From Patescibacteria group bacterium (GTDB taxonomy: Bacteria; Patescibacteriota; Patescibacteriia; Patescibacteriales; JBAZCA01): a DNA stretch of 64,000 bases. Every line of letters begins with the position of its first letter. The stretch's first letter is position 1. Both the position numbers and the translations under genes were made by a program. The notes under the pieces are model-generated. The model did not search any database. It was not told the DNA's origin and worked only from the letters and a program-made list of their open reading frames with translations. Shown one piece after another: positions 11,529-40,304 of this stretch. The DNA lies in contig JBAZCA010000001.1 of assembly GCA_041671125.1 (NCBI GenBank), positions 136,120 to 200,119 of the forward strand, in the 5' to 3' direction.

Positions 11529-11715
11529 GATGCGAGCATTGAAAAATTTTGGAAAAATCATGAGCGTGGAAAGCGTGTAAAATTCCACTGTTTGAGCGAA
11601 CCCGCCGAATCGGCGGGGAGCGAGTTTGGAATTTTACTAGCTTTCATAGCGAATGATCCAAAATTTTTCCTGCTCGCGATTTTTGCGCCACTTTTTCTAA
11701 AAAAGTGGCAAAAAT
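11529..11715 (+). repeat. Family B structured element (about 185 bp), copy 1
   Basis: gatgcgagcattgaaaaatttt...cccgccgaatcggcgggg...aaaatttttcctgctcgc...gccactttttctaaaaaagtggc. Nested inverted repeats plus a 3' hairpin. Lies between serC and serA. Confidence 0.8.
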
Positions 11716-11736
11716 ATTTAAATACAAAATACATTA

Positions 11737-12678
11737 TCACATATTCACACTCCCAGCTTTTCTGCCTTCGGCCATAAACCGGCAGACTTTCTCGCTCGTT
11801 GACAGCGCGATATCAACCTGAGCTTCTTCGGTTGAAGCGCCGATATGCGGGGTTAAAATTACGTTCGGAAGACCCTGTAATTCACATTCCATTTTTTCAT
11901 CGTTAGTTTTCGGCTCATTAGCGTAAACGTCAATTGCCGCTCCGGCTAAATGCCCGGATTTTAAAGCTGAGGCCAAAGCGCTCATATCAACAACGTTTCC
12001 CCGGCTTAAATTAATTAAATAACTTCCCGGTTTCATTAAAGCGATTTTTTCCGCGTTTATTAAATTCGGGGCCGAGGCATGGAGCGATACAACGTCCGCC
12101 TCTGCTAAAAGCTCTTCCAGGGTTTTCATCTTTTTCGCCCTGCCCATTGCCAACTTATCAAAAACGTCAAAAAATATAACTTTCATGCCGAGCGCTTCGG
12201 CTAAAACCGAAAGTTGGGAGCCAATATTGCCATAACCTACTATGCCCAAAGTTTTTCCCCGGACTTCATAAGAACCTTTGGCGCTTTTTTTCCAGTCTCC
12301 GGCGTGCATCTCCCGGTTCCGGTCGCCGATTTTACGGAGCAAACTAATAATAAAACCAATAGCCAGTTCGGCCACGCTTCTCGTAGAAGAAAAAGGCGCG
12401 TTAAAAACGCAGACTCCGGCCGAAGTACAGGCGGCGAGATCCACCTTATTCAAGCCGATAACATATCCGCCGATGACTTTGAGGTTTTTTGCGGCCGCGA
12501 GAACTTCCGCGTCAATTTCAGTCTTAGAGCGGATGCCGAGCACTTCCACGTCTTTGATTTTTTCTTTAAGTTCATCTTTTGGCAGAGTGCCTTTAATTAA
12601 CTCTACCTGAAAATCGCGCTCTTCATAATACTTTTTCGCGAGCTCGCTTATACCCTCTAAAAGCAATACTTTTGGCAT
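11737..12678 (-). CDS. serA: D-3-phosphoglycerate dehydrogenase (short form, no ACT domain)
   Basis: 2-hydroxyacid dehydrogenase with GIVGYGNIGSQ NAD motif. Context is with serC and serB. Confidence 0.85.
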   Translation of the reverse strand: MPKVLLLEGISELAKKYYEERDFQVELIKGTLPKDELKEKIKDVEVLGIRSKTEIDAEVLAAAKNLKVIGGYVIGLNKVDLAACTSAGVCVFNAPFSSTRSVAELAIGFIISLLRKIGDRNREMHAGDWKKSAKGSYEVRGKTLGIVGYGNIGSQLSVLAEALGMKVIFFDVFDKLAMGRAKKMKTLEELLAEADVVSLHASAPNLINAEKIALMKPGSYLINLSRGNVVDMSALASALKSGHLAGAAIDVYANEPKTNDEKMECELQGLPNVILTPHIGASTEEAQVDIALSTSEKVCRFMAEGRKAGSVNM

Positions 12679-12722
12679 AAATTTTATGTTCGCTAATTAA
12701 TAAATGTTAAGTTTAAATTACG

Positions 12723-13054
12723 TTGTCATCTCAACCTTAGCGCAACAGAGAGTCATATTTCTTCTGTCATCCTGAGCGTAGCGAAGGATCTGCGGATGCG
12801 TTTCATATATTCACTTTTTATAACGCGCCACCGATTCTTTCTCATACTCTTCAACCTCTTTTTTATTTATCCCGTAATCCTTAAATAACCCCTCGCTTAA
12901 ATCCAGTAAATTTAAAAATGACTGCGGCAAACGACAACCATCTTTATTTAAACCCTTAGATACTTATTTACGTTCGCAGATCCTTCGTCCCGAATATTCG
13001 GGACTCAGGATGACAAAATAAAAAAGGATTTCTCTCTCGCGCTTAGAATGACAG
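12723..13054. repeat. Family C palindromic repeats (tgtcatcctgagcg...ggatgaca), composite copy
   Basis: Left arm tgtcatcctgagcgtagcgaaggatctgcg (12765-12794). Right arm cgcagatccttcg...actcaggatgaca (12974-13014). About 180 bp lies between the arms, with additional half-sites at both ends. Confidence 0.75.
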
Positions 13055-13171
13055 AAAAAGAGGATAATAAAAGACAGCCAAATTTGGAAACCGGGAGCGT
13101 TTCCATTGGTCAGAGGTAGTACAATTCACTCTGCCAATACTAGTAAGGAAACACTCCCGGAACGACGAGGA

Positions 13172-13285
13172 CTAGTCGTCTGGACATTCGTCCTCGTCAT
13201 CAGGGGGATCGTCAATAATATCCCCCTCATACTCATAACGACCCTCTTCCAGAGAGTCGCCTCTGTCATCTAGCCCGTAGCCCAT
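13172..13285 (-). CDS. Candidate 37-aa highly acidic small protein
   Basis: Own translation: MGYGLDDRGDSLEEGRYEYEGDIIDDPPDDEDECPDD. Preceded by GGAGAGGAGGTG and 7 nt, then ATG. Too short for the ORF track. Confidence 0.35.
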   Translation of the reverse strand: MGYGLDDRGDSLEEGRYEYEGDIIDDPPDDEDECPDD

Positions 13286-13422
13286 AATATCACCTCCTCT
13301 CCGCCGGAGCTACACGGCAAAAAATAAAACGAACACGAAACCAGGAACTAAACCATGATTCATATTTACTTCCCGCTTTCCTATCCACTGAACCTTTTTA
13401 AAGAACAAAATTATTAAAAATG

Positions 13423-13607
13423 GATGCGAGCATTGAAAAATTTCGGGCGTATCACGAGCGTAGAAAGTGTGCAAAATTCCACTGTTTGAGGACCCGCCGA
13501 ATCGGCGGGGACGAGTTTGGAATTTTGCTAGCTTTCATAGTGAGTGATCCGAAATTTTTCAATGCTCGCGATTTTTGCGCCACTTTTTCTAAAAAAGTGG
13601 CAAAAAT
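13423..13607 (+). repeat. Family B structured element, copy 2
   Basis: Near-identical by eye to 40121-40304. The listed ORF 13420..13713 is a translation of this repeat. Confidence 0.8.
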
Positions 13608-13630
13608 TTTAACGCAACCTTATACATCTT

Positions 13631-14524
13631 TCAACCAAATAGCGTCGTACTTAAATATTTTTCCCCTCTATCCGGAAAGATCGTTACTATGTTTCCTTTA
13701 TCAATCTTTTTAGCGATTTTTAAGGCCGCGAGCAGGGCGGCGCCGGACGACATGCCGACAAAAATTCCCTCTTCGCTAATAATCCGCCGGGACATGGCAA
13801 AGGCTTCTTCGGTGTCAATCATAATAACGTCATCCAGTTTTTCGCGATTATAAATTTCTGGGATAATCGCTTCTTCCATGTTTTTTAAACCCTGAATATA
13901 ATGGCCGCGCACCGGTTCAGCCGAGACTATTTTCACCGCCGGATTTTTCTTTTTTAAATACGCTCCGATGCCCATGAGCGTTCCCGAAGTGCCAAGGGCG
14001 GCGGTAAAATAATCAACCTTGCCATTAAGGTCGCGCCAGATTTCCCGGGCGGTAGTTTCGTAATGGGCGATCTTATTATACTCATTGGAAAACTGGTTCG
14101 GGTTAAAATACTTTTCCGGATTTTCCGCTAATAGCTCCCGGACTTTCATTATAGCCCCGTCCGTGCCTTTTGTCTTCTCCGTCAAAGTAACTTTGGCGCC
14201 AAAGGCCTTAATCATTTTAATCCGTTCAGGCGAGACCGCCGCGCTCATCACTATTTCCACGCCGTAGCCGCGCGCCGCGCCGATCATGGCGAGGGCGATT
14301 CCGGTATTGCCGGACGTCGCTTCAATAATGGTTTTACCTTTGGTTAATTTTCCCTCCTTTACGCCCTGCTCCACCATTTTCAGGGCAATCCGGTCTTTTA
14401 TGCTTCCACCCGGATTAACGCCTTCAATTTTCGCGTAAATATTCACGCCCTTTTTCGTATTCAGCTTGTTGATCTTTACCATCGGCGTCCGGCCGATTGT
14501 TTCCAGTATATTATTATAAATCAT
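13631..14524 (-). CDS. cysK: Cysteine synthase (O-acetylserine sulfhydrylase)
   Basis: IGRTPMVKINKL...NPGGSIKDRIA carries the PLP-lysine motif, plus the SGNTG loop. Confidence 0.85.
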   Translation of the reverse strand: MIYNNILETIGRTPMVKINKLNTKKGVNIYAKIEGVNPGGSIKDRIALKMVEQGVKEGKLTKGKTIIEATSGNTGIALAMIGAARGYGVEIVMSAAVSPERIKMIKAFGAKVTLTEKTKGTDGAIMKVRELLAENPEKYFNPNQFSNEYNKIAHYETTAREIWRDLNGKVDYFTAALGTSGTLMGIGAYLKKKNPAVKIVSAEPVRGHYIQGLKNMEEAIIPEIYNREKLDDVIMIDTEEAFAMSRRIISEEGIFVGMSSGAALLAALKIAKKIDKGNIVTIFPDRGEKYLSTTLFG

Positions 14525-14535
14525 ATAAATAAAAT

Positions 14536-14557
14536 CCGTCCCTTTTGAGGACGGTTT
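14536..14557 (-). terminator. Attenuator terminator 11 nt upstream of cysK ATG
   Basis: Minus strand reads CCGUCCU-CAAAA-GGGACGG followed by AUUUUAUUUAU, then ATG. Its 5' half AAACCGUCCUC can instead pair with GAGGAUGGUUU (14621-14631). Confidence 0.65.
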
Positions 14558-14600
14558 CTTTTTTACAGTCTGCTATTCATGGGATTTTTGACTTTCAGGC

Positions 14601-14699
14601 TTAGACTTTTGACTCGTGGGAAACCATCCTCAAAACCGGCTTGCTACCCGAGCCGCCGCACCCGCCTGAAAGAGACATTTTGAAGATGGATATGTTCAT
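14601..14699 (-). CDS. Candidate leader peptide, Ser/Gly/Cys-rich (32 aa)
   Basis: MNISIFKMSLSGGCGGSGSKPVLRMVSHESKV, verified codon by codon. The ATG lies 6 nt after the -10 box, so it looks leaderless. Confidence 0.55.
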   Translation of the reverse strand: MNISIFKMSLSGGCGGSGSKPVLRMVSHESKV

Positions 14700-14705
14700 A
14701 GTTAT

Positions 14706-14734
14706 ATGCTAAATAATTTTCGCCCGAGTGTCAA
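14706..14734 (-). promoter_or_regulatory. Sigma70-like promoter of the cysK leader
   Basis: Minus strand reads TTGACA (14729-14734), 17 nt spacer, TAGCAT (14706-14711), 6 nt, ATG. Confidence 0.6.
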
Positions 14735-14789
14735 TAGCGCCGAGCGTGTGAGCGAGGCGTCCCGCAGCCGTCAGGCGTGCGGGGCTGTC

Positions 14790-15410
14790 TTAAATAAGTG
14801 ATCCGAGTAAATCATCAACCGTATAACTCTTATCCATCTGCTCGTAATAATCAATCGTCGTATCCGCCAGTTTTTCGTAAAGCCCGGTCCGATAAGCTAA
14901 AAGCGCCGGATAGCATCTTTTTAGAGCCGCGACCTCTTTCTCGCCGGCCAAAGGCTTATACGCTTCACCCCAGATTATCGGCTTCGGGTTGTCAAAATAC
15001 TGTTTAATTTTTTTCTCAATTACTTCTTTCGGCGTATTAAAATAAACTACTTTGGTCAGTTTTTTCATTCTTAGGAGTAGTTCGCCGGACAGGTAAATAA
15101 CGCTCCCGGTCGTGTCAATAACAATATTTTCGCTTATTCCATTTTCCGCGGCATCCAGCGCTTCTTTTAGGTTTTTAGCTTCAAGTTCCAGATATTTCCC
15201 GCTGTTTTCCGGGCATCTCTCGTCATAAGGCTGTCCGAGCCAGCGGCTCATGTCTTTAATTCCCGAATATCCGAGTTCTTCCAGTTCCGGGCCGAGCGCT
15301 TTCTCAATCATGTCGTCAATGCCAAACCTTTTAAAGCCTTTTTCTTTTTTAAGCTTCTCCGACCAGTAAGATTTCCCTACTCCGGCCATGCCGATTAAAG
15401 AGATAAACAT
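14790..15410 (-). CDS. P-loop kinase, shikimate-kinase-like fold; function uncertain
   Basis: Walker A GMAGVGKS. DTTGSVIY aligns with the STGGGVI of shikimate kinases. It lies immediately downstream of thrC, and a separate aroK exists at 28534. Confidence 0.55.
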   Translation of the reverse strand: MFISLIGMAGVGKSYWSEKLKKEKGFKRFGIDDMIEKALGPELEELGYSGIKDMSRWLGQPYDERCPENSGKYLELEAKNLKEALDAAENGISENIVIDTTGSVIYLSGELLLRMKKLTKVVYFNTPKEVIEKKIKQYFDNPKPIIWGEAYKPLAGEKEVAALKRCYPALLAYRTGLYEKLADTTIDYYEQMDKSYTVDDLLGSLI

Positions 15411-15422: not shown

Positions 15423-16781
15423 TTACAAATTCCCAAGCGCTTTTTTCAACTCCTCATAATTATTTTTAATACTGATTTTCCGCTTCTCTTTCTGCTTTAG
15501 CTTTTTTATTTCTTCCGAATCATCAACGTAAATCCCGGTGTTTTCCTTAATCACGTCAGCGAACTTTAAAGGCGAGGCTGTGGAAAAAACAACTTTAGTA
15601 AGTCCGTTCTCGCCTTCCTTTTCCGCTCCGGCGAACGCCACGGCCGTGTGGGGATCAAGGAGATAATTATATTTTTCATAAACTTTTTTTATGGTTTCGG
15701 CCGTTTCCTTGTCATCCACTCTTTCCGCTTTTATCACTTTGCGGAATTCATCCGGGTTATCATGGAAAACTTTTTGGATGCGGATGAAGTTGCTCGGGTT
15801 GCCGATGTCCATGGCGTTAGAAAGGGTCGCCACCGTCGCCCGCGGCTTAAACTCTCCGGTTTCGTAATATTTTTTCGCCGCGTCATTGGCGTTGGTAACC
15901 GCTAAAAACCGGCTAAAAGGAAATCCCATTTCCCGGGCAAAAACTCCGGCGCAAAGGTTGCCGTAGTTGCCGCAAGGCACGACAAATTCCACCCCCTCTT
16001 GGTCTCCCCCTTTTAAAGGGGGAGATATTTTTTGTCCCGCCCGTTTCCTCCCTCTTTCTAAGGGGGAGGTTAGGAGGGGGTAGAGTTGCGAATAAACATA
16101 AGCGTAATAAACCATCTGCGGCAATAGCCGGCCGACGCTTATGGAATTAGCGGCCGTAAGGTTTAACGCGGCTAAATCCGGGTCATTAAACGCCTGCTTG
16201 GCGAACGCCTGGCAATCGTCAAAAACGCCTTCAACTTCAATAGTCGCAACATTCGGCTCCACCCTGGTCAACTGCTCTTCCTGCAGTTTGGAAACCATGC
16301 CCTTAGGATAAAGGATTACTACTTTCACGTTCGGAACCCCGCCAAGGCCGTGCGCCACGGCGCCGCCGGTATCACCGGAAGTGGCAACGAGAATCGTCGC
16401 GGTTTTTTTCTCTTTTTCAAGGATCCGGCTCATGAACCGCGCGAGAACCCGCGCCGCCACGTCTTTAAACGCGAGCGTCGGGCCATGAAACAATTCAAGA
16501 ACATAATAATCCCCGATCTTTATTAAAGGCAGGGGAAAATTTAAAGCCTCTTCCATCATCACCCGAAGTTCTCCCTCGCTAAAATCGTCGCCTACCCATT
16601 TTAAAAGCGTTTGCGTTGCGACCTCAGTCAAATCCTTTCCTTTTAAATTTTCCAGTTCTTCTTCGGAAAATTTCGGAAAAAATTCGGGAAAATAAAGCCC
16701 GCCGTCCGGCGCGAGGCTCTTTAACATGGCTTCTTTAAAATTAACGGCCGGTGATTTACCGTTTAAGCTAAAAAATTTCAT
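15423..16781 (-). CDS. thrC: Threonine synthase (long type) carrying an in-frame family D repeat insertion
   Basis: The N-terminus GGLYFPEFFP, HGPTLAFKD (PLP lysine) and SGDTGGA are ThrC motifs. The segment LLTSPLERGRKRAGQKISPPLKGGDQEG is encoded by the repeat at 15989-16084. Confidence 0.9.
   Translation of the reverse strand: MKFFSLNGKSPAVNFKEAMLKSLAPDGGLYFPEFFPKFSEEELENLKGKDLTEVATQTLLKWVGDDFSEGELRVMMEEALNFPLPLIKIGDYYVLELFHGPTLAFKDVAARVLARFMSRILEKEKKTATILVATSGDTGGAVAHGLGGVPNVKVVILYPKGMVSKLQEEQLTRVEPNVATIEVEGVFDDCQAFAKQAFNDPDLAALNLTAANSISVGRLLPQMVYYAYVYSQLYPLLTSPLERGRKRAGQKISPPLKGGDQEGVEFVVPCGNYGNLCAGVFAREMGFPFSRFLAVTNANDAAKKYYETGEFKPRATVATLSNAMDIGNPSNFIRIQKVFHDNPDEFRKVIKAERVDDKETAETIKKVYEKYNYLLDPHTAVAFAGAEKEGENGLTKVVFSTASPLKFADVIKENTGIYVDDSEEIKKLKQKEKRKISIKNNYEELKKALGNL
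15989..16084. repeat. Family D palindromic element inside the thrC coding sequence
   Basis: ccaccccctcttggtctcccccttttaaaggggga...tcctccctctttctaagggggaggttaggagggggtag. The reading frame is maintained. Confidence 0.8.
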
Positions 16782-19190: not shown

Positions 19191-19410
19191 CTTAGGACTT
19201 ACGCGTTTGGAAAATAAACTCATTTTGTCATTCCGGTCGGAGCGTAGCGGAGAGCCGGAATCCAGCCTGCCTGCCGGCAGGCAGGGATTTAAAGGTAATA
19301 ATGTGTATATTTTTAAGATGCAGTTAGAGCTTTTAACCCTGGATTCCGGATAGCCTTACGGCTTCCGGAATGACAAAAGGGGTATTTGCGCGCAAACGCG
19401 TAAGTCCTAG
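19191..19410. repeat. Nested composite palindrome (outer acgcgtaagtcc arms around a family C core)
   Basis: cttaggacttacgcg...tgtcattccgg...cctgcctgccggcaggcagg...ccggaatgaca...cgcgtaagtcctag. Confidence 0.75.
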
Positions 19411-21348: not shown

Positions 21349-21930
21349 CTATCGGTCATAATTATTAACCGCCGCGATAAAGGTGGTAAAATTGAATTTT
21401 AAATCCTGAATTCCCTCTTCCGCGAGATCCAAGTCATATAATTCGGCGCAAACTTTCGGCGCGATAACCGCCGTGGTCTTAGGGATTACTTCGTCGGCTA
21501 AATCTTTGGCAGCCGTCGCCGTATCCGGATACTCGTTTAATTCAGCCTGGGGCCATTTTCTTTTTAAATACATCCGGCATTGGCGGAGCGCCTGCTGGTG
21601 CGAGGTGATGGCGTCAATTTTTTTCAGGTCCGCGCCTTTCTTCATTAAAAGGTTCATCTTAATATCAATTTCAAACATTTTTTCAATCTGGAAAATATGG
21701 CGAGCCATGGCTTCAACCGCTTCTACTACGATTCCGCCATTAGAATTCTCAATCGGAAAAATGCCGATATTTATTTTTCCCTTCCCGAGCGACCGCAAAA
21801 CATTCTCAACCGAAGTGAGATATTCCAACTCGTAATGCTCCAGCTTTTCCTCCCGGGCGTAATGTTTGGCGGCTTCTTCGGTAAAACTTCCCCGGTTTCC
21901 CGAAACGCCAATGATGATTTTAGCGGACAT
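21349..21930 (-). CDS. pheA: Prephenate dehydratase, catalytic domain only (no ACT domain)
   Basis: GVSGNRGSFTEEAA...IFPIENSNGGIV...ITSHQQALRQC are PDT motifs. 193 aa. Confidence 0.85.
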   Translation of the reverse strand: MSAKIIIGVSGNRGSFTEEAAKHYAREEKLEHYELEYLTSVENVLRSLGKGKINIGIFPIENSNGGIVVEAVEAMARHIFQIEKMFEIDIKMNLLMKKGADLKKIDAITSHQQALRQCRMYLKRKWPQAELNEYPDTATAAKDLADEVIPKTTAVIAPKVCAELYDLDLAEEGIQDLKFNFTTFIAAVNNYDR

Positions 21931-22070
21931 AAAATTAAATTTTTAATTCCTAATTTTTAATTTTTAAACAATTTCCAATGAATTAATTTCTAAATTTTTA
22001 AATTGAAAAATTCAAAATTGTTTGAAAATTAAAAATTGAAAATTGAAAATTAATAATGAATCATTAAACA
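21931..22070. repeat. Family E AT-rich long hairpin (aattttcaa/ttgaaaatt units)
   Basis: Arms aatttttaatttttaaacaatttccaatgaattaatttctaaattt and aaattgtttgaaaattaaaaattgaaaattgaaaatt. The same family occurs at 7845, 27016, 45897, 56651 and 57035. Confidence 0.7.
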
Positions 22071-22334: not shown

Positions 22335-23126
22335 ATGGCTTCAAAAAAAGAACTCTTATCAAAAATTATCAATCCCGTTTCCGGACGGACGGTTATTGTT
22401 CCCATGGATCACGGCGTTACCGACGGACCGATTTCGGGCCTTGAAAAAATGGATGAAATCATCCGCAAAGTAAAAGAAGGCGGCGCCGACGCTATTATCA
22501 TCCACAAAGGCATTTTTAAATTATGCCGGGAAGCCATCGGCGATCTTCCGGTTCTAATCCATATCTCGGCTTCAACCGGCATGGGCGTTTCTTTAAAAAA
22601 AGTTTTAGTCGCTACAGCCCGCGAAGTTAAAAACCTCGGCGCGGCCGGAGTTTCTGTCCATTTGAATATCGGGAACGAATACGAACCGGAAATGCTCCGC
22701 GATCTCGGCATTATTTCCCGCGAATGCGAAGAGGAAGGATTGCCGCTTTTAGCCATGATGTATCCGCGCGGCATTATTGACGGCCGGATAGTCCATTACA
22801 ACGACCCCGCCCGGGTGGCGCACGCCGCCCGCCTCGCGGCCGAACTCGGAGCCGACATAGTTAAAGTCCCATACACCGGCGACGCGAAAAGTTTCGGCGA
22901 AGTGGTCAAAAGCTGTCCCGTACCGGTCGTTATCGCCGGCGGAGCCAAAGGCTCGGAAGAAGCCATGCTTTCTTCCATCCGGGATTGCGTCCGGGCCGGA
23001 GCGACCGGAGTTTCGGTCGGCCGGAACGTCTTCCAGTCCGAAGACGTCCCGGGTATGGTAAAAAAAGTCCGGGACACTGTCTATAACGCGACCCTTAATT
23101 TGTCATCTATACAGACTGTCCGATAA
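22335..23126 (+). CDS. 2-amino-3,7-dideoxy-D-threo-hept-6-ulosonate (ADH) synthase, class I aldolase family (archaeal AroA')
   Basis: DhnA/FbaB-type aldolase with IVPMDHG and the Schiff-base region ADIVKVPY. The adjacent DHQ synthase II supports the specific call. Confidence 0.8.
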   Translation: MASKKELLSKIINPVSGRTVIVPMDHGVTDGPISGLEKMDEIIRKVKEGGADAIIIHKGIFKLCREAIGDLPVLIHISASTGMGVSLKKVLVATAREVKNLGAAGVSVHLNIGNEYEPEMLRDLGIISRECEEEGLPLLAMMYPRGIIDGRIVHYNDPARVAHAARLAAELGADIVKVPYTGDAKSFGEVVKSCPVPVVIAGGAKGSEEAMLSSIRDCVRAGATGVSVGRNVFQSEDVPGMVKKVRDTVYNATLNLSSIQTVR

Positions 23127-23127
23127 T

Positions 23128-23335
23128 TGTCATTCCGACCCCGCCTTTTGCGGGGGAGGAATCCCTTAAAGGTGAAAGTGGCTAGTTTAAGGGATTTCTC
23201 CCCGCCGATTCGGCGGGTCGAAATGACAAAAAAAGGAGTTGTCGGGTAGCTTGGAGAGATATAATTGAGTTGAACATATTATAAAAAAAATCTCATACGT
23301 AGCGATTAGATCTCTCGCTACGCTCGAGATGACAA
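23128..23335. repeat. Family C palindromic repeats (one full copy plus a half copy)
   Basis: tgtcattccgaccccgccttttgcggggg...ccccgccgattcggcgggtcgaaatgaca, then ...gattagatctctcgctacgctcgagatgacaaaag. The half copy supplies the ATG at 23329. Confidence 0.75.
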
Positions 23336-25926: not shown

Positions 25927-27015
25927 ATGAAAAAATTTAGAGTCGGCATCCTCGGCGCGACCGGCATGGTTGGCCAAAACTACATAAGATTGCTTAATAA
26001 CCACCCCTGGTTCAAAGTTACCTACGTCGCGGCTTCGGCCAATTCGGCCGGAGTAACGTATTTTGATTCCATAATCGGCCGCTGGCAGATGGCCACCGCC
26101 GTCCCCAAAGACACAAAGTCTTTAATCGTTGAAAATGTCGCCAACATCAATAAAGCCAGGAAGCATTGTGATTTTGTTTTTTCGGCCTTTGAAATGCCGG
26201 ACAAAAACCTGGTTAAAGAAATGGAGGAAAAATACGCCGCCGCCGGAATCCCGGTCGTCTCAAACGCCTCGGCCAACCGGTTTACCGATGACGTGCCCAT
26301 GCTTATCCCGGAAATAAATCCGCACCATATTGACATCATTCCGATCCAGAAAAAAAAACGTGGCTGGAAAAAAGGTTTTATCGTCGTCAAACCCAATTGC
26401 AGTCTTCAAAGTTATATCACCCCGATTTTTTCCCTTACTAAAGCGGGCTATCCGGTTGAAAAAATATTTATCACCACCCTTCAGGCCGTATCCGGCGCCG
26501 GTTATCCGGGCGTGCCAAGCCTGGATATGATTGGCAATGTCGTGCCATTTATCCCGGGCGAAGAAGAAAAAACCGAGGAAGAACCTTTAAAAATCCTCGG
26601 GGAAATAAAGGACGGAAAATTCCAAAAGGCGGTTTATCCGACAATTTCCGCCCATTGCAACCGGGTGCCGGTGATTGACGGCCATCTCGCCTGCGTCAGC
26701 CTGAAATTCGCCGGGAAAAAACCCAGCCGGGAAAAAATCCTGAAAATCTGGAAAGAATTCAGGGCTCTTCCCCAAACCTTAAAACTGCCGATGGCGCCGG
26801 AACAGCCGATCCTTTACCGTAACGAGCATAACCGCCCCCAGCCGAGAAAAGACCGGGATCGGGAAAAAGGCATGGCCGTTACCGTCGGACGCTTAAGGGA
26901 ATGCAAAATCTTTGACTATAAATTCGCGGCTTTAAGCCATAACACGGTGCGCGGCGCGGCCGGCGGCGGAATATTAAACGCCGAATTGCTTGTGAAGAAA
27001 GGATATATAAAATAA
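25927..27015 (+). CDS. asd: Aspartate-semialdehyde dehydrogenase
   Basis: VGILGATGMVGQ, KPNCS (active-site Cys) and SAHCNRVPV motifs. Confidence 0.9.
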   Translation: MKKFRVGILGATGMVGQNYIRLLNNHPWFKVTYVAASANSAGVTYFDSIIGRWQMATAVPKDTKSLIVENVANINKARKHCDFVFSAFEMPDKNLVKEMEEKYAAAGIPVVSNASANRFTDDVPMLIPEINPHHIDIIPIQKKKRGWKKGFIVVKPNCSLQSYITPIFSLTKAGYPVEKIFITTLQAVSGAGYPGVPSLDMIGNVVPFIPGEEEKTEEEPLKILGEIKDGKFQKAVYPTISAHCNRVPVIDGHLACVSLKFAGKKPSREKILKIWKEFRALPQTLKLPMAPEQPILYRNEHNRPQPRKDRDREKGMAVTVGRLRECKIFDYKFAALSHNTVRGAAGGGILNAELLVKKGYIK

Positions 27016-27120
27016 ATCTTCAATTATCAATGATCAATTTTCAATCAATTTTCAATTAAGCAATTTTAAAATTTAGAAATTAATTCATTTAAAATTGTTT
27101 AAAAATTTAAAATTTTCCGA
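27016..27120. repeat. Family E AT-rich hairpin repeat
   Basis: caattatcaatgatcaattttcaatcaattttcaattaagcaattttaaaatttagaaattaattcatttaaaattgtttaaaaatttaaaatt. Confidence 0.65.
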
Positions 27121-27131
27121 TTTACATTTCA

Positions 27132-28430
27132 ATGTCTTCAAAATCATATAAAATTCTTCCTCTCAAACATCCAATCAGTAAAACCATCACCATGCCCGGT
27201 TCTAAGAGCCTCTCTAACCGCTGCTTAGTAATGGCGGCGTTTTCGCGCGGGCAATCCGTAATCACGGGCGCGTCCGAATCGGACGACTGCCGGATTATGG
27301 TTTCCGCGCTAAAAAAATTGGGAGTTAAAATTAAAAAAAACCGAAACCGGTTGATTGTTTTTGGTAATAACGGCGAATTCCAGCCTTTCAAAGGAAAAAT
27401 AGATGTTGGCGCGGCCGGAACCGCCGCCCGTTTTCTTCTCGCTATCTGCGCTCTGGCGCCCGGAGAAATAATCCTTGACGGGACGTATCGTATGCGGCAA
27501 AGGCCAATCGGCGAACTGGTTAACGCTTTACGAAAACTCGGAGCCGGAATCCAATACCAAAGAAAAGCTAATTGCCTGCCGGTTAAAATCAGGGGTGGAA
27601 ATCTAACCGGCCGGAAAGTCAGCCTGCCCGGAAGAATCTCAAGCCAATTTTTTACTTCCCTTCTCCTGATCGCCCCGGTTTTAAAACAAGGGATTGAAAT
27701 AAGCGTTATTGGCGGACAAATTTCTAAATCTTATATAGACATGACTTTGGACGGTTTAAAAAAACACGGGGTTAGGATAAAAAACCAGGATTATAAAAAA
27801 TACATAGTCCGGCCAGATGCTCGCTACAAACCGGGTCATTACCAAGTTGAAGGCGACGCTTCAGGCGCGAGTTATTTTTTCGCCCTGGCCGCGTTAACCA
27901 AAAACCGGATCCGGATAAAAAATATTCTGCCTGATTCTTCGCAAGGCGACGCTAAATTTCCGGATCTACTAAAACGGATGGGCGCGAAAGTAATAAAAAA
28001 CCAAAAAGAAAACTGGATTGAAGTATCCGGAACCGGCCGCTTAAAAGGCATTTCCGTTAATATGGAAAACATGCCGGATACGGCTCAGACTTTAGCGATA
28101 GTGGCCGCCTTTGCCAAAGACAAAACTAAAATCACCGGGCTTTCCACTCTAAGACATAAAGAAACCGACCGCCTTTCAGCGCTAAAGAATGAACTGAAAA
28201 AAATGGGCGTCAGGTCTGAAATTACCGCTAATTCCATAACGATTCACGGCGGGCGACCGGGCAGCGCGATAATTGATACTTATGGTGATCACCGCATGGC
28301 CATGGCTTTCGCGATCGCTGGCTCGCGGATTCCGGACTTAGCGATTAAAGACCCGGCCGTAGTGTCAAAATCATTTCCGGAATTCTGGTCACTATTAAAA
28401 AGTATTGGTGTTAAAACAACGTCATCCTGA
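27132..28430 (+). CDS. aroA: 3-phosphoshikimate 1-carboxyvinyltransferase (EPSP synthase)
   Basis: PGSKSLSNR, GAAGTAARFL and HRMAMAFAIAG motifs. The last codons ACG TCA TCC TGA lie in the family C repeat. Confidence 0.9.
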   Translation: MSSKSYKILPLKHPISKTITMPGSKSLSNRCLVMAAFSRGQSVITGASESDDCRIMVSALKKLGVKIKKNRNRLIVFGNNGEFQPFKGKIDVGAAGTAARFLLAICALAPGEIILDGTYRMRQRPIGELVNALRKLGAGIQYQRKANCLPVKIRGGNLTGRKVSLPGRISSQFFTSLLLIAPVLKQGIEISVIGGQISKSYIDMTLDGLKKHGVRIKNQDYKKYIVRPDARYKPGHYQVEGDASGASYFFALAALTKNRIRIKNILPDSSQGDAKFPDLLKRMGAKVIKNQKENWIEVSGTGRLKGISVNMENMPDTAQTLAIVAAFAKDKTKITGLSTLRHKETDRLSALKNELKKMGVRSEITANSITIHGGRPGSAIIDTYGDHRMAMAFAIAGSRIPDLAIKDPAVVSKSFPEFWSLLKSIGVKTTSS

Positions 28431-28520
28431 GCGAAGTGGAACGTAGTGAAGGATCTCGTTAAAAACAGTAAGCGTCGCGAAGACGGGATTCTTCCCCCGC
28501 AAATGCGGGGTCAGAATGAC
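28421..28520. repeat. Family C palindromic repeat overlapping the aroA stop
   Basis: gtcatcctgagcgaagtggaacgtagtgaaggatctcg...gggattcttcccccgcaaatgcggggtcagaatgac. Confidence 0.8.
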
Positions 28521-28533
28521 GAAAAGAGAATAT

Positions 28534-29856
28534 ATGAATATAATCCTTATCGGTTTCATGGGTTCGGGAAAAACTACGCTAGCCAAAATACTCACAGACG
28601 CTTTGGGCTGGAAGGCAATTGAAATGGATGATTTGATTTTAAAAAAAAGCGGTCGAAGGACCATTGGTGAAATTTTTGAAAAAAACGGCGAATCGGTCTT
28701 TCGAAAATTGGAAGCGCAAATCGCCAGAGAATTATCCAATACTAATAATAAAATCATCTCTACCGGCGGGGGCGTTATCATGAACGCTAAAAATATCGCT
28801 AACCTGAAAAAAACCGGAAAAATTGTTTATTTAAAAGACAGCTTTGAAAATATCCGGGAAAGATTAAAAAAAGATAAAACCCGGCCGCTCTTTCAGGATT
28901 TAAAGAAAGCAAGAAAACTGTTTAAGCTTCGCCAGTCCTTATACGAGAAATACGCCGATGAAATTATTAATTGCGCGGCTAACCCGGACTTAAACCGCGT
29001 CAGCCGGGAAATTACTAAACGGCTGGAAAAAGACTTAAAAAAAATCTGCCTGATTATCGGCGATCCCGTAGCCCACAGCCTCTCGCCCGCCATGCATAAC
29101 GCCGGCTATCGGGCTTTAAAAATTGATAACCAATTTATTTTTCTTTCAGCCAAAGTTAAGCCGCGGGAATTAAAAAACAGCGTCCGGGCGGCGAGAACTT
29201 TAGGAATCCGCGGACTTACCTCTACCATGCCGCACAAACAAGCGATAATGAAATACCTTGACCGGATTGACCCAATCGCGAAAAAAATCGGCGCGGTTAA
29301 TACGGTGGTTAATGAGAGCGGCCGACTGACCGGCTATAATACTGACTGGCTGGGCGCCGTAATCCCTTTGGAAAATTCTGCCGGTAAAAATGGCTTAAAA
29401 AATAAAAGAGTGGCTCTACTCGGTTCGGGCGGCGCGGCCCGGGCGATTGCCTACGGGTTAGCGAAAAAAGGCGCCCGCTTAAAAATCTTTGACCGCGACA
29501 TTAATAACGCGCGAAAACTGGCTAAGGAATTCGGGGCAGAATCCGGCGGTTATTCGCAAATCCATGAAGTTAAAAGCTCTGACATCATTATCAACGCCAC
29601 GCCGATCGGCATGAAACCGCGTGAAAATGAATCACTGGTACCAGCGGAATTTTTACGTAAAGACCAGGTTGTTTTTGACGCCGTCTATTTTCCCCGAAAA
29701 ACCAAACTTTTAAAACAGGCGGAAAAAAAAGGCGCGAAAATTATTCCCGGCTTGGAAATGCTTTTATATCAGGGAGCGGCCCAGTTTGAATTATATACCG
29801 GCAGAAAAGCGCCGGTTGAAGCAATGAGAAAAGCCTTGAAAAGATGCGAGCATTGA
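28534..29856 (+). CDS. aroK-aroE: Shikimate kinase / shikimate 5-dehydrogenase fusion
   Basis: N-terminus has GFMGSGKTT and STGGGVI (shikimate kinase). C-terminus has GDPVAHSLSPAMHN, MPHK, NTDW and GSGGAARA (shikimate dehydrogenase). Start placed at MNIILIGF. The stop lies in family B repeat copy 3. Confidence 0.85.
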   Translation: MNIILIGFMGSGKTTLAKILTDALGWKAIEMDDLILKKSGRRTIGEIFEKNGESVFRKLEAQIARELSNTNNKIISTGGGVIMNAKNIANLKKTGKIVYLKDSFENIRERLKKDKTRPLFQDLKKARKLFKLRQSLYEKYADEIINCAANPDLNRVSREITKRLEKDLKKICLIIGDPVAHSLSPAMHNAGYRALKIDNQFIFLSAKVKPRELKNSVRAARTLGIRGLTSTMPHKQAIMKYLDRIDPIAKKIGAVNTVVNESGRLTGYNTDWLGAVIPLENSAGKNGLKNKRVALLGSGGAARAIAYGLAKKGARLKIFDRDINNARKLAKEFGAESGGYSQIHEVKSSDIIINATPIGMKPRENESLVPAEFLRKDQVVFDAVYFPRKTKLLKQAEKKGAKIIPGLEMLLYQGAAQFELYTGRKAPVEAMRKALKRCEH

Positions 29857-30038
29857 AAAATTTCGGATAAGACAAACGGACATTTTCCTCTACAAAATTT
29901 TTCTGTCCGAGCGAACCCGCCGAATCGGCGGGGAGCGAGTTAAAAATTTTGTTAGGAAAATAGAGGTTTGACCCGAAATTTTTCACCTGCTCGCGATTTT
30001 TACGCCACTTTTTCTAAAAAAGTGGCAAATAAAATACA
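29853..30038 (+). repeat. Family B structured element, copy 3 (variant inner stem)
   Basis: Same outer arms (gatgcgagcattgaaaaatttcgg / ccgaaatttttcacctgctcgc), same central cccgccgaatcggcgggg and same 3' hairpin. The inner arms differ from the other copies but remain mutually complementary. Confidence 0.8.
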
Positions 30039-36755: not shown

Positions 36756-37523
36756 ATGAAAATAAAAATTTGCGGAATTACAAATCTGGAAGACGCGAAA
36801 AACGCCATTAAACTCGGTGCTGATTACCTTGGTTTTATTGTTGATTTTCCCAAAAGCCCAAGGAGTGTTTCCATGGAAAAATTTATTCAACTGGCATCAG
36901 CAATAAAAAAATGTCAATCGTCAATCCGCCCGGACGAACATCCCCACCAGAATGACCTTGTCGGGCTGGCGTTCGGACGGGTCGTCAATCCGCCCGGACG
37001 AACATCCGTTCGGACGGGTCGTCAATCGTCAATCTCTATCGTCGCCGTAACCGTGGATATGGCTGAAGACAAGTTAAGAGAATTATTGGCGGAAAATCTA
37101 ATTGATGTCTTACAATTCCATGGCCATGAAACCCCGGAATTTTGCGACCAATTCAGAAACAAAGTTGAAGTTTGGAGGTCGTTTAAGATACAGACGACAG
37201 ACGACAGACGACAGACAATAGAAATTCTGGAAAAATTCAAAGGAAAAATTGACCGCTCTTTACTGGACGCCGCGAGCGCCGAAGACAAGGCTAATAACAG
37301 AAACAACCAATTCAAAGATTTTAAGCTGTTTAAAGATTTACAGGCCAGAGGTTATCCGCTCGTCCTCGCTGGCGGGATTAACCCGGATAATGTAGAATTA
37401 TATATAAATAAGCTAAATCCAGAAATAATTGATGTCGCGAGCGGTATAGAAGAGCGTCCAGGAAAAAAGAGTCCGGAGAAGATGAAAAAATTTATGGAAA
37501 AAATAAAACATACAACCCTATGA
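36756..37523 (+). CDS. trpF: Phosphoribosylanthranilate isomerase with in-frame repeat insertions
   Basis: KICGITNLEDA, GADYLGFI and LAGGINPDNV motifs. At 255 aa it is longer than the roughly 205 aa I expect. The excess maps to repeat DNA at 36911-37040 and the cagacga tandem at about 37190-37220. Confidence 0.85.
   Translation: MKIKICGITNLEDAKNAIKLGADYLGFIVDFPKSPRSVSMEKFIQLASAIKKCQSSIRPDEHPHQNDLVGLAFGRVVNPPGRTSVRTGRQSSISIVAVTVDMAEDKLRELLAENLIDVLQFHGHETPEFCDQFRNKVEVWRSFKIQTTDDRRQTIEILEKFKGKIDRSLLDAASAEDKANNRNNQFKDFKLFKDLQARGYPLVLAGGINPDNVELYINKLNPEIIDVASGIEERPGKKSPEKMKKFMEKIKHTTL
36911..37040. repeat. gtcaatcgtcaatcc / ccgcccggacgaacatcc repeat block inside trpF
   Basis: Direct copies of (gtc)gtcaatccgcccggacgaacatcc at 36913 and 36981, plus the hairpin ccggacgaacatccgttcggacgg. 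The cgtcaatcgtaaatc motif also flanks the tRNAs (4660, 9510) and occurs at 54985. Confidence 0.75.
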
Positions 37524-38767
37524 ACATCTTTATTAAAACCAAATACGACGCAGACAGTCGCGGGCATTTTGGAAAACTCGGCGGAAGGTATGTTCCGGAA
37601 ATGCTAATTCCGGCTCTGGAAGAGTTAGAAACTGCTTACGAAGACGCTAAGCGCGACCCGCGTTTTTTAGCCGATCTCATGGATCTTTATAAAAATTACG
37701 ACGGCCGTCCCACCCCGCTTTATTACGCGGAAAACCTTACTAAAAGACTGGGCGGCGCGAAAATTTTTATTAAAAACGAAGGGCAGAATTTAACCGGCGC
37801 TCATAAAATTAACCATTCCCTCGGTCAGGCATTGCTCGCGAGGCGCATGGGTAAAAAGCGCTTAATCGCCGAAACCGGGGCCGGCCAGCACGGCCTTGCC
37901 ACCGCCACGGTCGCCGCTAAGTTCGGATTTAAATGCGCGGTTTATATGGGCAAGGTGGATTATCACCGCCAGCGGCCGAATGTTTTTTGGATGGAGCAGC
38001 TGGGCGCCGAAGTCATCCCGGTTCTGCACGGAACTCAGCGCTTAAAAGACGCCGTAACCGCCACGCTCCAGGATTGGATAGAAAACGTGGATGATACCTA
38101 TTATCTTTTAGGCTCGGCTTTAGGGCCCCATCCCTATCCTTCCATGGTCCGGGATTTCCAGACCATTGTCGGACTGGAAGTAAAAAAACAGCTAAAAGAA
38201 AATTACGGCGTTAACAGACCGGACTGCGTCATCGCCTGCGTCGGCGGCGGTTCAAACGCCATCGGAATTTTTAATCCTTATTTGGATGACCGGAAGGTTA
38301 AGCTCATCGGCGTTGAAGCCGGCGGCCGGGGAATAAAAAAAATCGGCGACCACGCCACCCGGCTCCAGAAAAACCAAAAGCTCGGAGTGGTTGAAGGCTA
38401 TAAATCATACTTTATTCAGGACGGGGACGGCCAGATCCAAAACACCCATAGCATTTCCGCCGGGCTGGATTATTCGGGAATCGGACCCGAACACGGACTT
38501 TTGTATTTAAAAGGCCGGGTGGAATATAAATACGCGACAGACAAGGAAGTTTTAGCCGCCTTTAAACTGCTCGCCCGGACCGAAGGCATAATTCCGGCTC
38601 TGGAATCAGCCCACGCCGTTGCTTACGCCATAAAACTCGCCCCCAAGCTCAGTAAAAATAAAACCATTGTCATAAATCTCTCCGGCCGCGGCGACAAAGA
38701 TATCTTTATTGTGGCCGAAGCGCTGAAAGATGAAAGATGGAAGGAGTATTTAAAAAGTAAAATATGA
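37520..38767 (+). CDS. trpB: Tryptophan synthase beta chain
   Basis: GKLGGRYVPE, GAHKINH (PLP lysine), ETGAGQHG and GGGSNAIG. Confidence 0.95.
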   Translation: MNIFIKTKYDADSRGHFGKLGGRYVPEMLIPALEELETAYEDAKRDPRFLADLMDLYKNYDGRPTPLYYAENLTKRLGGAKIFIKNEGQNLTGAHKINHSLGQALLARRMGKKRLIAETGAGQHGLATATVAAKFGFKCAVYMGKVDYHRQRPNVFWMEQLGAEVIPVLHGTQRLKDAVTATLQDWIENVDDTYYLLGSALGPHPYPSMVRDFQTIVGLEVKKQLKENYGVNRPDCVIACVGGGSNAIGIFNPYLDDRKVKLIGVEAGGRGIKKIGDHATRLQKNQKLGVVEGYKSYFIQDGDGQIQNTHSISAGLDYSGIGPEHGLLYLKGRVEYKYATDKEVLAAFKLLARTEGIIPALESAHAVAYAIKLAPKLSKNKTIVINLSGRGDKDIFIVAEALKDERWKEYLKSKI

Positions 38768-39564
38768 ACAAAATCAATTCACAACTCAATAAAATCAAAC
38801 AGCAAAATCGCTTGGGAATCATGACCCATATCGTTATCGGCTATCCGAACCTTAAAGAAAGTCTCTCGCTCGCTAAACTCATGGCCGGCTTGGGCGTTGA
38901 CTTTATTGAATTACAGCTTCCCTTTTCCGACCCCATGGCTGACGGCCCGACTATCATGGCCGCGAATAAAGCCGCGCTGGATAATGGGACGCGGGTAAGG
39001 GATTGTTTTAAAGCCATGAAAGAATTATCCGAACAGGTTAATATTCCCCTGATTTTCATGGGTTATTTTAATACGGTTCACAGCTACGGCGCGGAAAAAT
39101 TCTGTTGCGACGCGCAAAAGGCCGGAGCGAGCGGCCTCATTTTTCCCGATATTCCTTTGGATGAAGAAAAAGAAGAGGGCTATATAGCGGCGGCGAAAAA
39201 AAATAACCTCATTCCCATCCGCCTCCTTTCTCCGGCTTCCACTCCGGAAAGGATGAAAAAAAATTCCAAAGTCGCCGACGGCTTTCTCTATTATGTCGGC
39301 CGCAAAGGCACGACCGGAGTTAAAGCCGAACTGGACAGCAAATTAAATATACATTTAAAAGAGCTGAAAAAATATTTTAAGATCCCAATTGCTGTCGGCT
39401 TCGGCATTTCTAAACCCGAACACATCAAATCTCTAAAAGGCAAAGCTGCTATAGCCGTTATCGGTTCGGCCTGCTTAAACGCCTATGACAAAGCGCCCAA
39501 AGGCGAAGGGCTTAAAGCGGTAGAAAACTTCCTCGCTCCGCTTATTAAAGAAGCTGGAAAATAA
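38764..39564 (+). CDS. trpA: Tryptophan synthase alpha chain
   Basis: DFIELQLPFSDPMADGPTI and VGFGIS motifs. The start overlaps the trpB stop. Confidence 0.95.
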   Translation: MNKINSQLNKIKQQNRLGIMTHIVIGYPNLKESLSLAKLMAGLGVDFIELQLPFSDPMADGPTIMAANKAALDNGTRVRDCFKAMKELSEQVNIPLIFMGYFNTVHSYGAEKFCCDAQKAGASGLIFPDIPLDEEKEEGYIAAAKKNNLIPIRLLSPASTPERMKKNSKVADGFLYYVGRKGTTGVKAELDSKLNIHLKELKKYFKIPIAVGFGISKPEHIKSLKGKAAIAVIGSACLNAYDKAPKGEGLKAVENFLAPLIKEAGK

Positions 39565-39706
39565 ACTTACTTATTTAAACTCTCCTCTACCGCGATCTCT
39601 TACCCCGGTAGAGACCGGGGCGAGGGGAGCGAGACCCGCTTCGACTCGCCGAAGACGAGGCGAGGAAGGGTTGGGGGGTGAGGGAAAAATAAGGTTAGGT
39701 GAGAGG

Positions 39707-40081
39707 CTAAACTTCGGCGATCGTTTCAATTTCTACGAGCGCGCCTTTGGGGAGCGCGGCGACCTGGATCGTAACTCTGGCCGGATAAGGTTCGGGAAAA
39801 TACTCGCCATAAATCTCGTTCGCCCTGGAAAAATCATTCAGGTCGCTTAAGTACATGGTGGAGCGAACCACGGCGCTAAAATTAAGGCCGGCTTCAGCTA
39901 AAATGGCTTTGATATTTTCTAAAACCTGCCTGGCTTCGGCTTCTATGCCGCCGGTAACCATATTCCCTTCCGTATCCAAAGGAATCTGGCCGGAGATGAA
40001 TAATAAGTTTCCCGATCTAATAGCCTGCGAGTAAGGGCCAATGGCCTTTGGAGCGTTGGATGCGGTTATTGCTTGCTTCAT
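39707..40081 (-). CDS. ridA: RidA (YjgF/TdcF) reactive enamine/imine deaminase
   Basis: APKAIGPYSQA...GQIPL...ARVTIQVAALPKGALVEIE is canonical RidA. It is the last gene of the ilv transcription unit. Confidence 0.85.
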   Translation of the reverse strand: MKQAITASNAPKAIGPYSQAIRSGNLLFISGQIPLDTEGNMVTGGIEAEARQVLENIKAILAEAGLNFSAVVRSTMYLSDLNDFSRANEIYGEYFPEPYPARVTIQVAALPKGALVEIETIAEV

Positions 40082-40120
40082 AAATTTGCATAATTACTAT
40101 TGGCTACAATTAAATAAAAT

Positions 40121-40304
40121 GATGCGAGCATTGAAAAATTTCGGGCGTATCACAAGCGTAGAAAGCGTGCAAAATTCCACTGTTTGAGGACCCGCCGAAT
40201 CGGCGGGGACGAGTTTGGAATTTTGCTAGCTTTCATAACGAGTGATCCGAAATTTTTCACTAGCGAGCGCTTTTTGCGCCACTTTTTCTAAAAAAGTGGC
40301 AAAA
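40121..40304 (+). repeat. Family B structured element, copy 4
   Basis: Lies between the ilvC stop and the ridA start. Near-identical by eye to copy 2. Confidence 0.8.

Follow-up and report, generated by a model that had tools for sequence, protein, structure and literature searches.

A dispersed ~185-bp repeat with a conserved rod-like structure in the short intergenic gaps of Patescibacteria

Introduction

What is a structured sequence of ~185 bp that stands four times, always in the same orientation, beside amino-acid biosynthesis genes of a patescibacterium? The question is raised by a stretch of 64,000 nucleotides (hereafter "the window") of contig JBAZCA010000001.1 (assembly GCA_041671125.1, positions 136,120 to 200,119 of the forward strand), in which a preliminary description, made from the letters alone, had noticed the four copies of this element. 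The analysis reported here demonstrates that the element is a multi-copy, non-coding, structure-maintaining repeat common to several lineages of the Patescibacteria (Candidate Phyla Radiation, CPR) and that it is mobile now or was so recently, being needed at no given locus. The reading that we favor, with a probability of about 0.6, is that it represents a family of non-coding, mosaic palindromic interspersed repeats of the ERIC/Correia/YPAL/REP-BIME kind. The family is apparently undescribed, no account of it or of interspersed repeat families in Patescibacteria (CPR) having been found in the literature consulted, whereas the kind of element is already known from better-studied bacteria.

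The four copies of the window

The bounds of the copies were set by a covariance model and the four copies were also placed by multiple alignment and repeat finding (Table 1). These procedures agree with the preliminary description that there are four copies of ~185 bp, all on the plus strand, and that they share a central GC hairpin and a 3′ hairpin; indeed, both the apical hairpin CCCGCCGAATCGGCGGGG and the 3′ hairpin GCCACTTTTTCTAAAAAAGTGGC (0.00 matches expected) are exact in all four. The outer arms, likewise said to be shared, are so only in part: the 5′ arm GCGAGCATTGAAAAATTT occurs far above chance (5 matches in the window vs 0.32 expected), whereas a perfect 21-nt outer inverted repeat exists in copy 2 only, and the 3′ box of copy 4 reads GCGAGC, in direct orientation, in place of GCTCGC. 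The inner arms of copy 3 are, as claimed, divergent from those of the other copies yet mutually complementary, with predicted folds having z = −6.7 on the plus strand and −6.4 on the minus strand; for copy 1 the predicted fold, rod and small hairpin included, amounts to −86.1 kcal/mol (z = −9.2), and the z-scores of the copies for which they were computed range from −6.4 to −9.2.

Other details had to be amended. Copy 3 begins at position 29843 and not 29853, and the gene upstream of it, previously called aroE, is an aroK-aroE fusion whose TGA stop codon lies inside the 5′ arm of the copy and is supplied by it, an arrangement that is identical in the relative L088 (L numbers denote individual loci). 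The transcription units holding the copies are three on the minus strand (serA/serC, cysK, ilvC/ridA) and one on the plus strand (aroKE/aroD), instead of two and two. Furthermore, the copies do not always lie between genes of an operon, as copy 2 is followed by ~0.74 kb of repeat-rich non-coding DNA that makes its operon membership not obvious. No further copies were found in the remaining ~20 kb of the window's contig. Coding potential was also considered and rejected: the only ORF (open reading frame), of 97 amino acids, starts in copy 2, matches no Pfam family and is not conserved in frame.

Anatomy and conservation of the structure

The element consists of a rod-like hairpin of ~145 nt, a T-run and a small hairpin. 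Throughout the family, the 5′ arm GCGAGCATTGAAAAATTTYGG is followed by three co-varying helices with conserved purine-rich internal loops between them, by a hypervariable apical hairpin of 0 to ~100 nt, by the returning arms, by a 3′ hexamer (GCTCGC, which is paired, or GCGAGC), and finally by the T-run, the small hairpin GCCAC-T5-CTA-A6-GTGGC and an A-run. The ends are GCGAGCATTG... on one side and ...GTGGCAAAA on the other, and many copies carry as their outermost 3′ hexamer the direct form, GCGAGC, and not the inverted one. Among the conserved internal loops, a 2x2 loop consists of tandem G.A in a 5′-CGAG-3′ context, the very motif that is also formed by the GCGAGC/GCGAGC variant of the terminal helix; the others are a GU/UA loop and a 3x3 loop.

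A covariance model was built, as had been suggested in the preliminary description. The structure is kept by compensatory change, both sides being altered in 22 of the 48 pairs and covariation being found in 124 cells, as opposed to 32 ± 4.5 upon shuffling of the columns and 9–26 with slid partners. Compensatory change is seen also between orthologs, CCTCTAC/GTTAGG in copy 3 corresponding to CCTTTAC/GTAAAGG in L088. Wobble pairs give no strand signal, since G-U (17 cells) barely exceeds A-C (12 cells).

A strand difference resides in what follows the rod: on the plus strand, this is closed by GCGAGC/GCTCGC and then followed by GA-UUUUU in nearly all copies, whereas on the minus strand a U-rich tail after the rod is present in only ~6 of the 14 window-type copies; the small hairpin is devoid of a U-tail on both strands. 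The strongly strand-asymmetric structure of the plus strand and a U5 that would define the 3′ end are what one would expect if each copy were the gene of a trans-acting small RNA, a rod-shaped transcript made from its own promoter. This explanation is, however, very improbable, given that the upstream flanks of 34 copies share no −35/−10 pattern and no convincing internal promoter was found (consensus scan at background level), that the copies are dispensable between close relatives, that copy 3 overlaps a stop codon and that there is no Rfam match. As to the last point, the preliminary description had asked whether the element might belong to an established non-coding RNA family; no Rfam family reached its gathering threshold and, when E was raised to 10 for copies 1 and 2, the best overlaps had 12–16 bits vs thresholds of 51–91.

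The left flank of the Falkowbacteria-type copies, AATTTCCTTATA, which is conserved, was considered as a ribosome-binding site on the reverse strand and discarded, no start codon or ORF following it in most copies; it probably belongs to the element of this subfamily.

Distribution beyond the window

By exact look-ups of its proteins, the window was assigned to the metagenome-assembled genome GCA_041664845.1 of a "Patescibacteria group bacterium" (contig JBAYJZ010000005.1, identical to k141_224736 of ENA ERZ27249449). GTDB representative genomes and Joint Genome Institute (JGI) metagenomes were scanned for the 18-mer GCGAGCATTGAAAAATTT. In addition to chance matches in coding regions of unrelated taxa, the scans yielded genuine full-length copies, and altogether 32 distinct full copies were gathered with nhmmer and the covariance model. 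Seven copies belong to Patescibacteria STD1_31 and five to Ca. (Candidatus) Falkowbacteria MFD01188.bin.1.43; others are found in STF1_116, in WY3.bin75 and DBS2-1.bin63, two metagenome-assembled genomes (MAGs) labelled only "bacterium", and in close relatives of the window organism (contigs Ga0074197, Ga0209016 and Ga0172379/80). A single copy comes from a bin labelled Gammaproteobacteria and another from a 3-kb contig labelled Nanoarchaeia; both binnings are provisional. WY3.bin75 contains head-to-head dimers whose members are 15–21 nt apart (L012, 4201–4560; L040, 821–1192) and whose second member, lacking the exact 18-mer, was found by the covariance model only. No copy was detected by blastn in phage and plasmid collections, nor by three pattern scans in viral contigs, where the sole match of the 18-mer was due to chance and had no element around it.

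Filled and empty sites

Comparison of orthologous sites in close relatives provides the evidence for mobility. The serA–serC gap, that comprises 245 nt in the window including copy 1, is reduced to 21 nt (ATTAAAAATTAAAAATTAYTT) without the element in L091 and L110–L115, and the relatives that are empty at this site include members of the 90%-identity protein cluster of the window's SerA. The site of copy 2, downstream of cysK, is filled in the window and in L091, L113 and L114, whose copies have a nested 20-nt palindrome and an altered apex, and is empty in L110 and L111, where 8 nt (tccctttc) stand in place of aattttt-element-cattttt; this is compatible with, albeit no proof of, an A/T-rich duplication of ~7 bp. 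Between ilvC and ridA, copy 4 and 39 nt of unique AT-rich sequence account for the 226 nt of the window, whereas in L118–L121 (94% IlvC identity) there is no copy and the two genes are separated by one nucleotide (TAA-T-ATG); a 90% relative has an unrelated insert of 79 nt at the same junction. The reverse situation is met between the aspartate-semialdehyde dehydrogenase gene and aroA, where L062 and L088 have a copy and the window has a different, AT-rich repeat. Thus, the element is dispensable at every site tested, where it was recently gained or lost, and its presence or absence at orthologous sites of close relatives qualifies it as mobile, or recently mobile, DNA. The 39 nt, that lie between the end of the copy 4 rod and the start of ridA and are missing from the empty sites, may have arrived with the insertion or may be a later addition serving as a new leader; a similar stretch of 37 nt adjoins copy 1.

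The same data bear on whether the element could be an amino-acid-responsive leader or attenuator of the ser, cys, aro and ilv operons. All four copies lie within the amino-acid cluster (9.7–54 kb) and none in the other ~40 kb of the contig, a coincidence having P ~0.08, the cluster being about half of the contig. Such a function is hardly credible, since copies 1, 2 and 4 are missing from relatives that have the same operons, the neighboring genes in other genomes are unrelated, and the copies are placed downstream of or between genes and mostly antisense to them; the empty sites effectively refute it.

The claim of the preliminary description that this is a dispersed element acting at the DNA level, and no regulator bound to certain genes, has therefore proved broadly right, in light of the filled and empty sites and of the lack of a recurrent gene family in its vicinity: an all-vs-all blastp of 406 flanking ORFs gave one cluster across three loci and nothing more. 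A further argument, namely that the element is more conserved than the flanking genes, was dropped; copy 3 and its ortholog in L088 are ~96% identical vs 74% for aroKE overall, yet conservation is just as high over the final ~100 nt of the gene, and high similarity was found for the flanks of copy 2 as well.

In the three filled/empty pairs that were compared, the divergence or the AT-richness of the empty sites was too great for the junctions to be fixed. Truncated copies (L019, L020, L041) have no cargo; that of L020, examined as a possible cargo-bearing partner, is followed by an ordinary gene. The large serine recombinase encoded in the window was also rejected as partner, as it sits in a separate low-GC island.

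Gene context and orientation

The copies are located at the 3′ ends of genes or inside operons, in very short gaps; in nine cases the gap is almost wholly occupied, the copy ending at 9–42 nt from the next gene's start codon. Their orientation with respect to the flanking genes was determined for ~30 copies with crude ORF calls: both neighbors are antisense to the element in 13 cases and sense in 6–7, whereas they converge in 2–3 and diverge in 0–1 (of ~25), and in 22 of 31 cases the gene that adjoins the small hairpin is directed into the element. The uniform plus-strand orientation, correctly described for the window, is thus a small-sample effect, both orientations being found among the ~30 copies; given the 2:1 antisense bias, an arrangement of four co-oriented copies such as that of the window has P ~0.12 and is unremarkable.

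A link of orientation to replication, as had been suggested, was tested by GC skew. This is negative on the element strand in 27 of 36 neighborhoods and ranges from −0.05 to +0.16, being mostly positive, for the sense copies; the skew tracks the gene strand and gives no separate information on replication, so that this test was abandoned as uninformative. The issue is relevant for another explanation, according to which the element works as single-stranded DNA, the plus-strand hairpin being either what an HUH/Y1 (IS200/IS605- or RAYT-type) or attC-type recombinase acts on or a signal for priming of the lagging strand, with orientation tied to replication. This would accord with the greater stability that DNA parameters assign to the plus-strand rod in 29 of 32 copies (mean difference 1.7 kcal/mol), with mirror-symmetric mismatches that make sense only in a folded strand, with the lack of a clear target-site duplication, with the predominantly negative skew and with the co-orientation of the window copies in a region whose cumulative skew is monotonic. 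It remains distinctly unlikely, considering that replication is not separable from gene strand, that each of two contigs of one MAG (JAQUPS010000010 and JAQUPS010000004) has copies in both orientations amid genes that all run the same way, that neither an HUH nor an integrase gene was found near the copies, and that attC R-boxes and similarity to plasmid sequences are lacking. The loop contains TAGCGA, which resembles the CS-6 motif (TAGCGT/A) of the plasmid single-strand origin ssoA; such an origin was likewise rejected, and plasmid similarity is absent.

The position of the copies, essentially never between divergent genes, is also what would be expected of a cis-acting RNA module selected by the host, in which the rod is an intercistronic signal for processing, stability or termination in polycistronic mRNAs and has spread secondarily. 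To this can be added the preservation of the rod by compensatory changes, the conservation of the tandem G.A loops (5′-CGAG-3′) and of the GU/UA loop beyond that of the stems, the U5 that follows the rod on the plus strand, and the RNA-level effects of this type known for ERIC and Correia (PMC2229807). On the other hand, about two-thirds of the copies are antisense, so that the transcribed strand is the one that folds worse and has no G.A loops, both orientations are found, and in the nearest relatives the element is lacking from these gene junctions; altogether, we regard the RNA module as rather unlikely.

Comparison with known repeats

Features of ERIC are reportedly treated by Wilson and Sharp (2006), and behavior such as that of the element is known for REP/BIME mosaics. 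The same behavior is described for ERIC, Correia/NEMIS, YPAL and CIR, whose features are considered here as reviewed in PMC2229807.

Like ERIC/IRU (127 bp), the element codes for no protein, is an imperfect palindrome whose fold is a long rod, stands in either orientation at intergenic sites that are transcribed (presumably, in our case, together with the neighboring genes), is highly conserved across species yet present or absent at individual loci, has size variants due to internal insertions and no known transposase, and might share the orientation-dependent effects that ERIC has on mRNA (PMC2229807). It differs in its unrelated sequence and host phylum and in a second conserved hairpin after the rod; the TA termini and target-site duplication of ERIC are not evident. 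With Correia/NEMIS of Neisseria (107–155 bp) it has in common the small size, the multiple copies, the long inverted repeats, the existence of long and short forms differing by an internal segment, and insertion next to or into the ends of genes, with which it would be co-transcribed; the hairpin of the Correia transcript is an RNase III substrate (PMC2229807), a property that our element might have by analogy. Whereas Correia has terminal inverted repeats of 24–26 bp, a TA duplication and an IHF site, the inverted repeats of the element are not terminal at the 3′ side, and neither a TA duplication nor an IHF site is seen.

YPAL/RU-2 of Yersinia (168 bp) is of similar size and has internal rather than terminal inverted repeats, CIR of Caulobacter/Brucella has two independently folding stem-loops, and for both the target duplications are variable or unclear and recent mobility was deduced from filled and empty sites (PMC2229807); neither their sequences nor their hosts are related to those of the element, and further differences are that YPAL is not A+T-rich and that CIR has methylation sites. 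The REP/BIME and REPIN elements with their RAYT transposases are similarly extragenic, between co-directional or convergent genes, and are mosaics whose modules are GC-rich hairpins; for the present element, too, a strand-specific hairpin is plausible, and the small GC hairpins nested in some copies look REP-like, but REP units measure 20–40 nt vs 185 nt with AT-rich arms, and no RAYT gene was identified with the element. The strand-asymmetric fold and the lack of a clear target-site duplication would be compatible with the PATE/RAYT-REP elements derived from IS200/IS605; no Y1 transposase is found near the copies. From integron attC sites the element differs in having neither the R″/R′ core sites (RYYYAAC ... 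GTTRRRY) nor an integrase, and in being flanked, in both orientations, by core biosynthetic genes.

As regards the MITE (a miniature transposable element with inverted repeats) envisaged by the preliminary description, the small size (<~300 bp), the absence of coding capacity, the multiple copies (4 in the window, up to 7 in another MAG) and the insertion polymorphism (copies 1, 2 and 4 empty elsewhere, L062 and L088 filled) fit. Nevertheless, the element is not a MITE in the strict sense, because its 3′ inverted repeat is non-terminal, target duplication is unproven and no partner was found.

Weighing the assignment

Assignment to the mosaic palindromic interspersed repeats must be set against a number of observations that weigh against it. 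The 5′ arm is terminal, whereas in 30 of 32 copies ~45 conserved nt (T-run, small hairpin and A-run) come after the 3′ arm. Direct repeats flank about half of the window-type copies and are imperfect, A/T-rich and 6–8 nt long (e.g., AAAAATG/AAAAATT for copy 2 and AAAAAAT/AAAAGAT for L062), the rest having none; moreover, the right-hand A-run is part of the element and not of the flank. The search for an autonomous partner encoding a transposase, proposed in the preliminary description, covered the window, 83 kb of its contig and ~120 fetched loci and gave a negative result. All copies outside the window were reached via the exact 18-mer, so that the census is biased, diverged members are missed and the invariance of the 5′ arm outside the window is there by construction. 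In addition, the major-base frequency is 0.91–0.97 in the internal loops vs 0.73–0.86 in the adjoining stems, and RNA parameters predict a more stable rod on the plus strand in 30 of 32 copies (mean difference 6.3 kcal/mol), the conserved purine–purine loops being the reason why this strand folds better; since the 32 copies share ancestry, the asymmetry is one family trait and not 30 independent observations. Conservation of loops above stems and a more stable plus strand are classical marks of a functional structured RNA or single-stranded DNA; they could be due to some role in the host and not to selfish spread. They also weaken the conclusion drawn previously, from the presence of co-oriented copies in transcription units of both strands, against a strand-specific function.

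Accounting for these marks by a functional, strand-specific structured RNA or folded single-stranded DNA under purifying selection across Patescibacteria is an unlikely option, although one in which the tandem G.A loops could be recognition sites for a CPR protein concerned with RNA processing or termination in operons or with hairpin-guided mobilization of DNA. The main uncertainty, in fact, concerns what the conserved loops are for: propagation of the element itself or a function in the host.

Within the preferred reading as interspersed repeats, the element would be propagated in trans by an enzyme recognizing the folded single strand, a mechanism that would explain why the pairing is kept along the whole rod, why the apex is always a hairpin and why the G.A loops belong to one strand. 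After insertion, the element would be co-transcribed with its neighbors to give a long double-stranded RNA rod that could influence termination or the stability of the mRNA, or could enter processing as an RNase III-type substrate. The plus-strand rod with its GA-U5 has the anatomy of an intrinsic terminator, which would render sense copies polar inside operons; selection against such polarity would explain the ~2:1 antisense excess.

Nested modules, other repeats and neighboring features

The perfect 20-nt palindrome CCTGCCTGCCGGCAGGCAGG, that stands alone at three positions of the window, is nested in copies of L062, L063, L071, L077 and L091, at two different internal positions and with no visible duplication, and other GC hairpins interrupt the copies of L032, L035 and L039. 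A different palindromic element of the window (gtcattccga ... tcgaaatgac) contains two GC hairpins, one of which is the apex module CCCGCCGAATCGGCGGG of the 185-bp family in opposite orientation. Another inverted-repeat element (catcctgagcgtagcgaaggatctg ... cagatccttcgtcccgaatattcgggactcaggatgac) is located within the 0.74 kb of non-coding DNA that separates copy 2 from serA. AT-rich intergenic blocks made of ~7-nt units (AATTTTT/AATTTTC) occur four times, and the empty serA–serC site of the relatives (ATTAAAAATTAAAAATTA) is of the same type. A GC-rich repeat of 42 nt, TCCTCCCCCTTAC-AAGGGGGAGG-NNNGGAGGGGG (family D6), has five copies, two of which are in tandem; these are abutted by the start (GTG) of a leuB ORF in which an N-terminal DUF559 (Vsr-like endonuclease) is fused to the isopropylmalate dehydrogenase domain, a fusion that may be an artefact of ORF calling. 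Genes of the window have AU-rich leaders without a recognizable Shine-Dalgarno sequence, and several genes of the relatives start 9–12 nt past the base of the rod.

The amino-acid biosynthesis cluster (ser, cys, thr, phe/tyr, aro, trp, ilv, leu) is large and unusual for CPR. The window's IlvC is 76–82% identical to IlvC proteins of Bacteroidota, and this suggests horizontal acquisition from that phylum; mis-binning is less likely because of the shared repeat family. Small genes of the 23S_rRNA_IVP family (PF05635), another variable intergenic passenger, are present between ilvB and ilvC in L120 (2049–2411) and L121 (522–884) and near ndk on the window's contig (L127, 16869–17213).

Toward the right end of the window, a low-GC island (38–40% vs ~46%) encoding the large serine recombinase is bracketed by a fragment and a full copy of a metallo-beta-lactamase-fold gene, both of which contain a direct repeat of 79–84% identity; it looks like an integrated element that split this gene, and holds a LOOT RNA (Rfam RF03000, 79.5 bits). 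Just beyond the window's right end, on the same contig (L127), SMODS and S_4TM genes form a CBASS-like defence pair; another gene there runs off the end of the locus and encodes ~2975 residues with Laminin_G domains.

Table 1. Positions of the element copies and of other features in the window
Feature	Position	Strand	Context	Covariance model score (bits)
Copy 1	11529-11714	+	between serC (10403-11491, -) and serA (11737-12678, -)	204
Copy 1, rod	11532-11677
Copy 1, apical hairpin	11601-11618
Copy 1, small hairpin	11687-11709
Copy 2	13423-13606	+	24 nt downstream of cysK (13631-14524, -)	195
Copy 2, apical hairpin	13493-13510
Copy 2, small hairpin	13579-13601
Copy 3	29843-30031	+	between aroK-aroE fusion (28516-29856, +) and aroD	154
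Copy 3, apical hairpin	29916-29933
Copy 3, small hairpin	30004-30026
TGA stop of aroK-aroE	29854-29856	+	inside 5′ arm of copy 3 (..AGA TGC GAG CAT TGA)
Copy 4	40121-40305	+	between ridA (39707-40081, -) and ilvC (40308-41390, -)	193
Copy 4, apical hairpin	40191-40208
Copy 4, small hairpin	40278-40300
97-aa ORF	13420-13713		starts in copy 2
39-nt AT-rich stretch, AU-rich leader	40082-40120		between copy 4 and ridA
37-nt stretch, AU-rich leader	11492-11528		adjoining copy 1
AU-rich leader	12679-12720
Aspartate-semialdehyde dehydrogenase gene	25927-27015
aroA	27132-28430
20-nt palindrome	4638-4657; 19266-19285; 47986-48005		stand-alone
Different palindromic element	23126-23232
Inverted-repeat element	12760-13015		between copy 2 and serA
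AT-rich blocks of ~7-nt units	7845-7890; 21913-22051; 27010-27128; 45876-46037		intergenic
D6 repeats	1750-1791; 16042-16083; 49377-49418; 50363-50446
leuB ORF with DUF559	50446-52056
Amino-acid biosynthesis cluster	~9700-54000
Low-GC island	57600-63900
Large serine recombinase	58148-59827	-	in low-GC island
Metallo-beta-lactamase-fold gene, fragment	57604-58146
Metallo-beta-lactamase-fold gene, full copy	63045-63902
LOOT RNA	62870-62997	-	in low-GC island

Implications

The genomes of Patescibacteria (CPR) are tiny and tightly packed, and the element wedges itself between genes that are 1–21 nt apart. It is useful for tracing both recent changes in genomes and the exchange of DNA among these bacteria, and is also a practical hazard, in that it gives rise to spurious ORFs, new stop codons, as in the case of aroK-aroE, and breaks in assemblies. 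If it is true that the conserved loops are sites recognized by a protein, they would offer a handle on a mobilization or RNA-processing activity in organisms not yet cultured alone.

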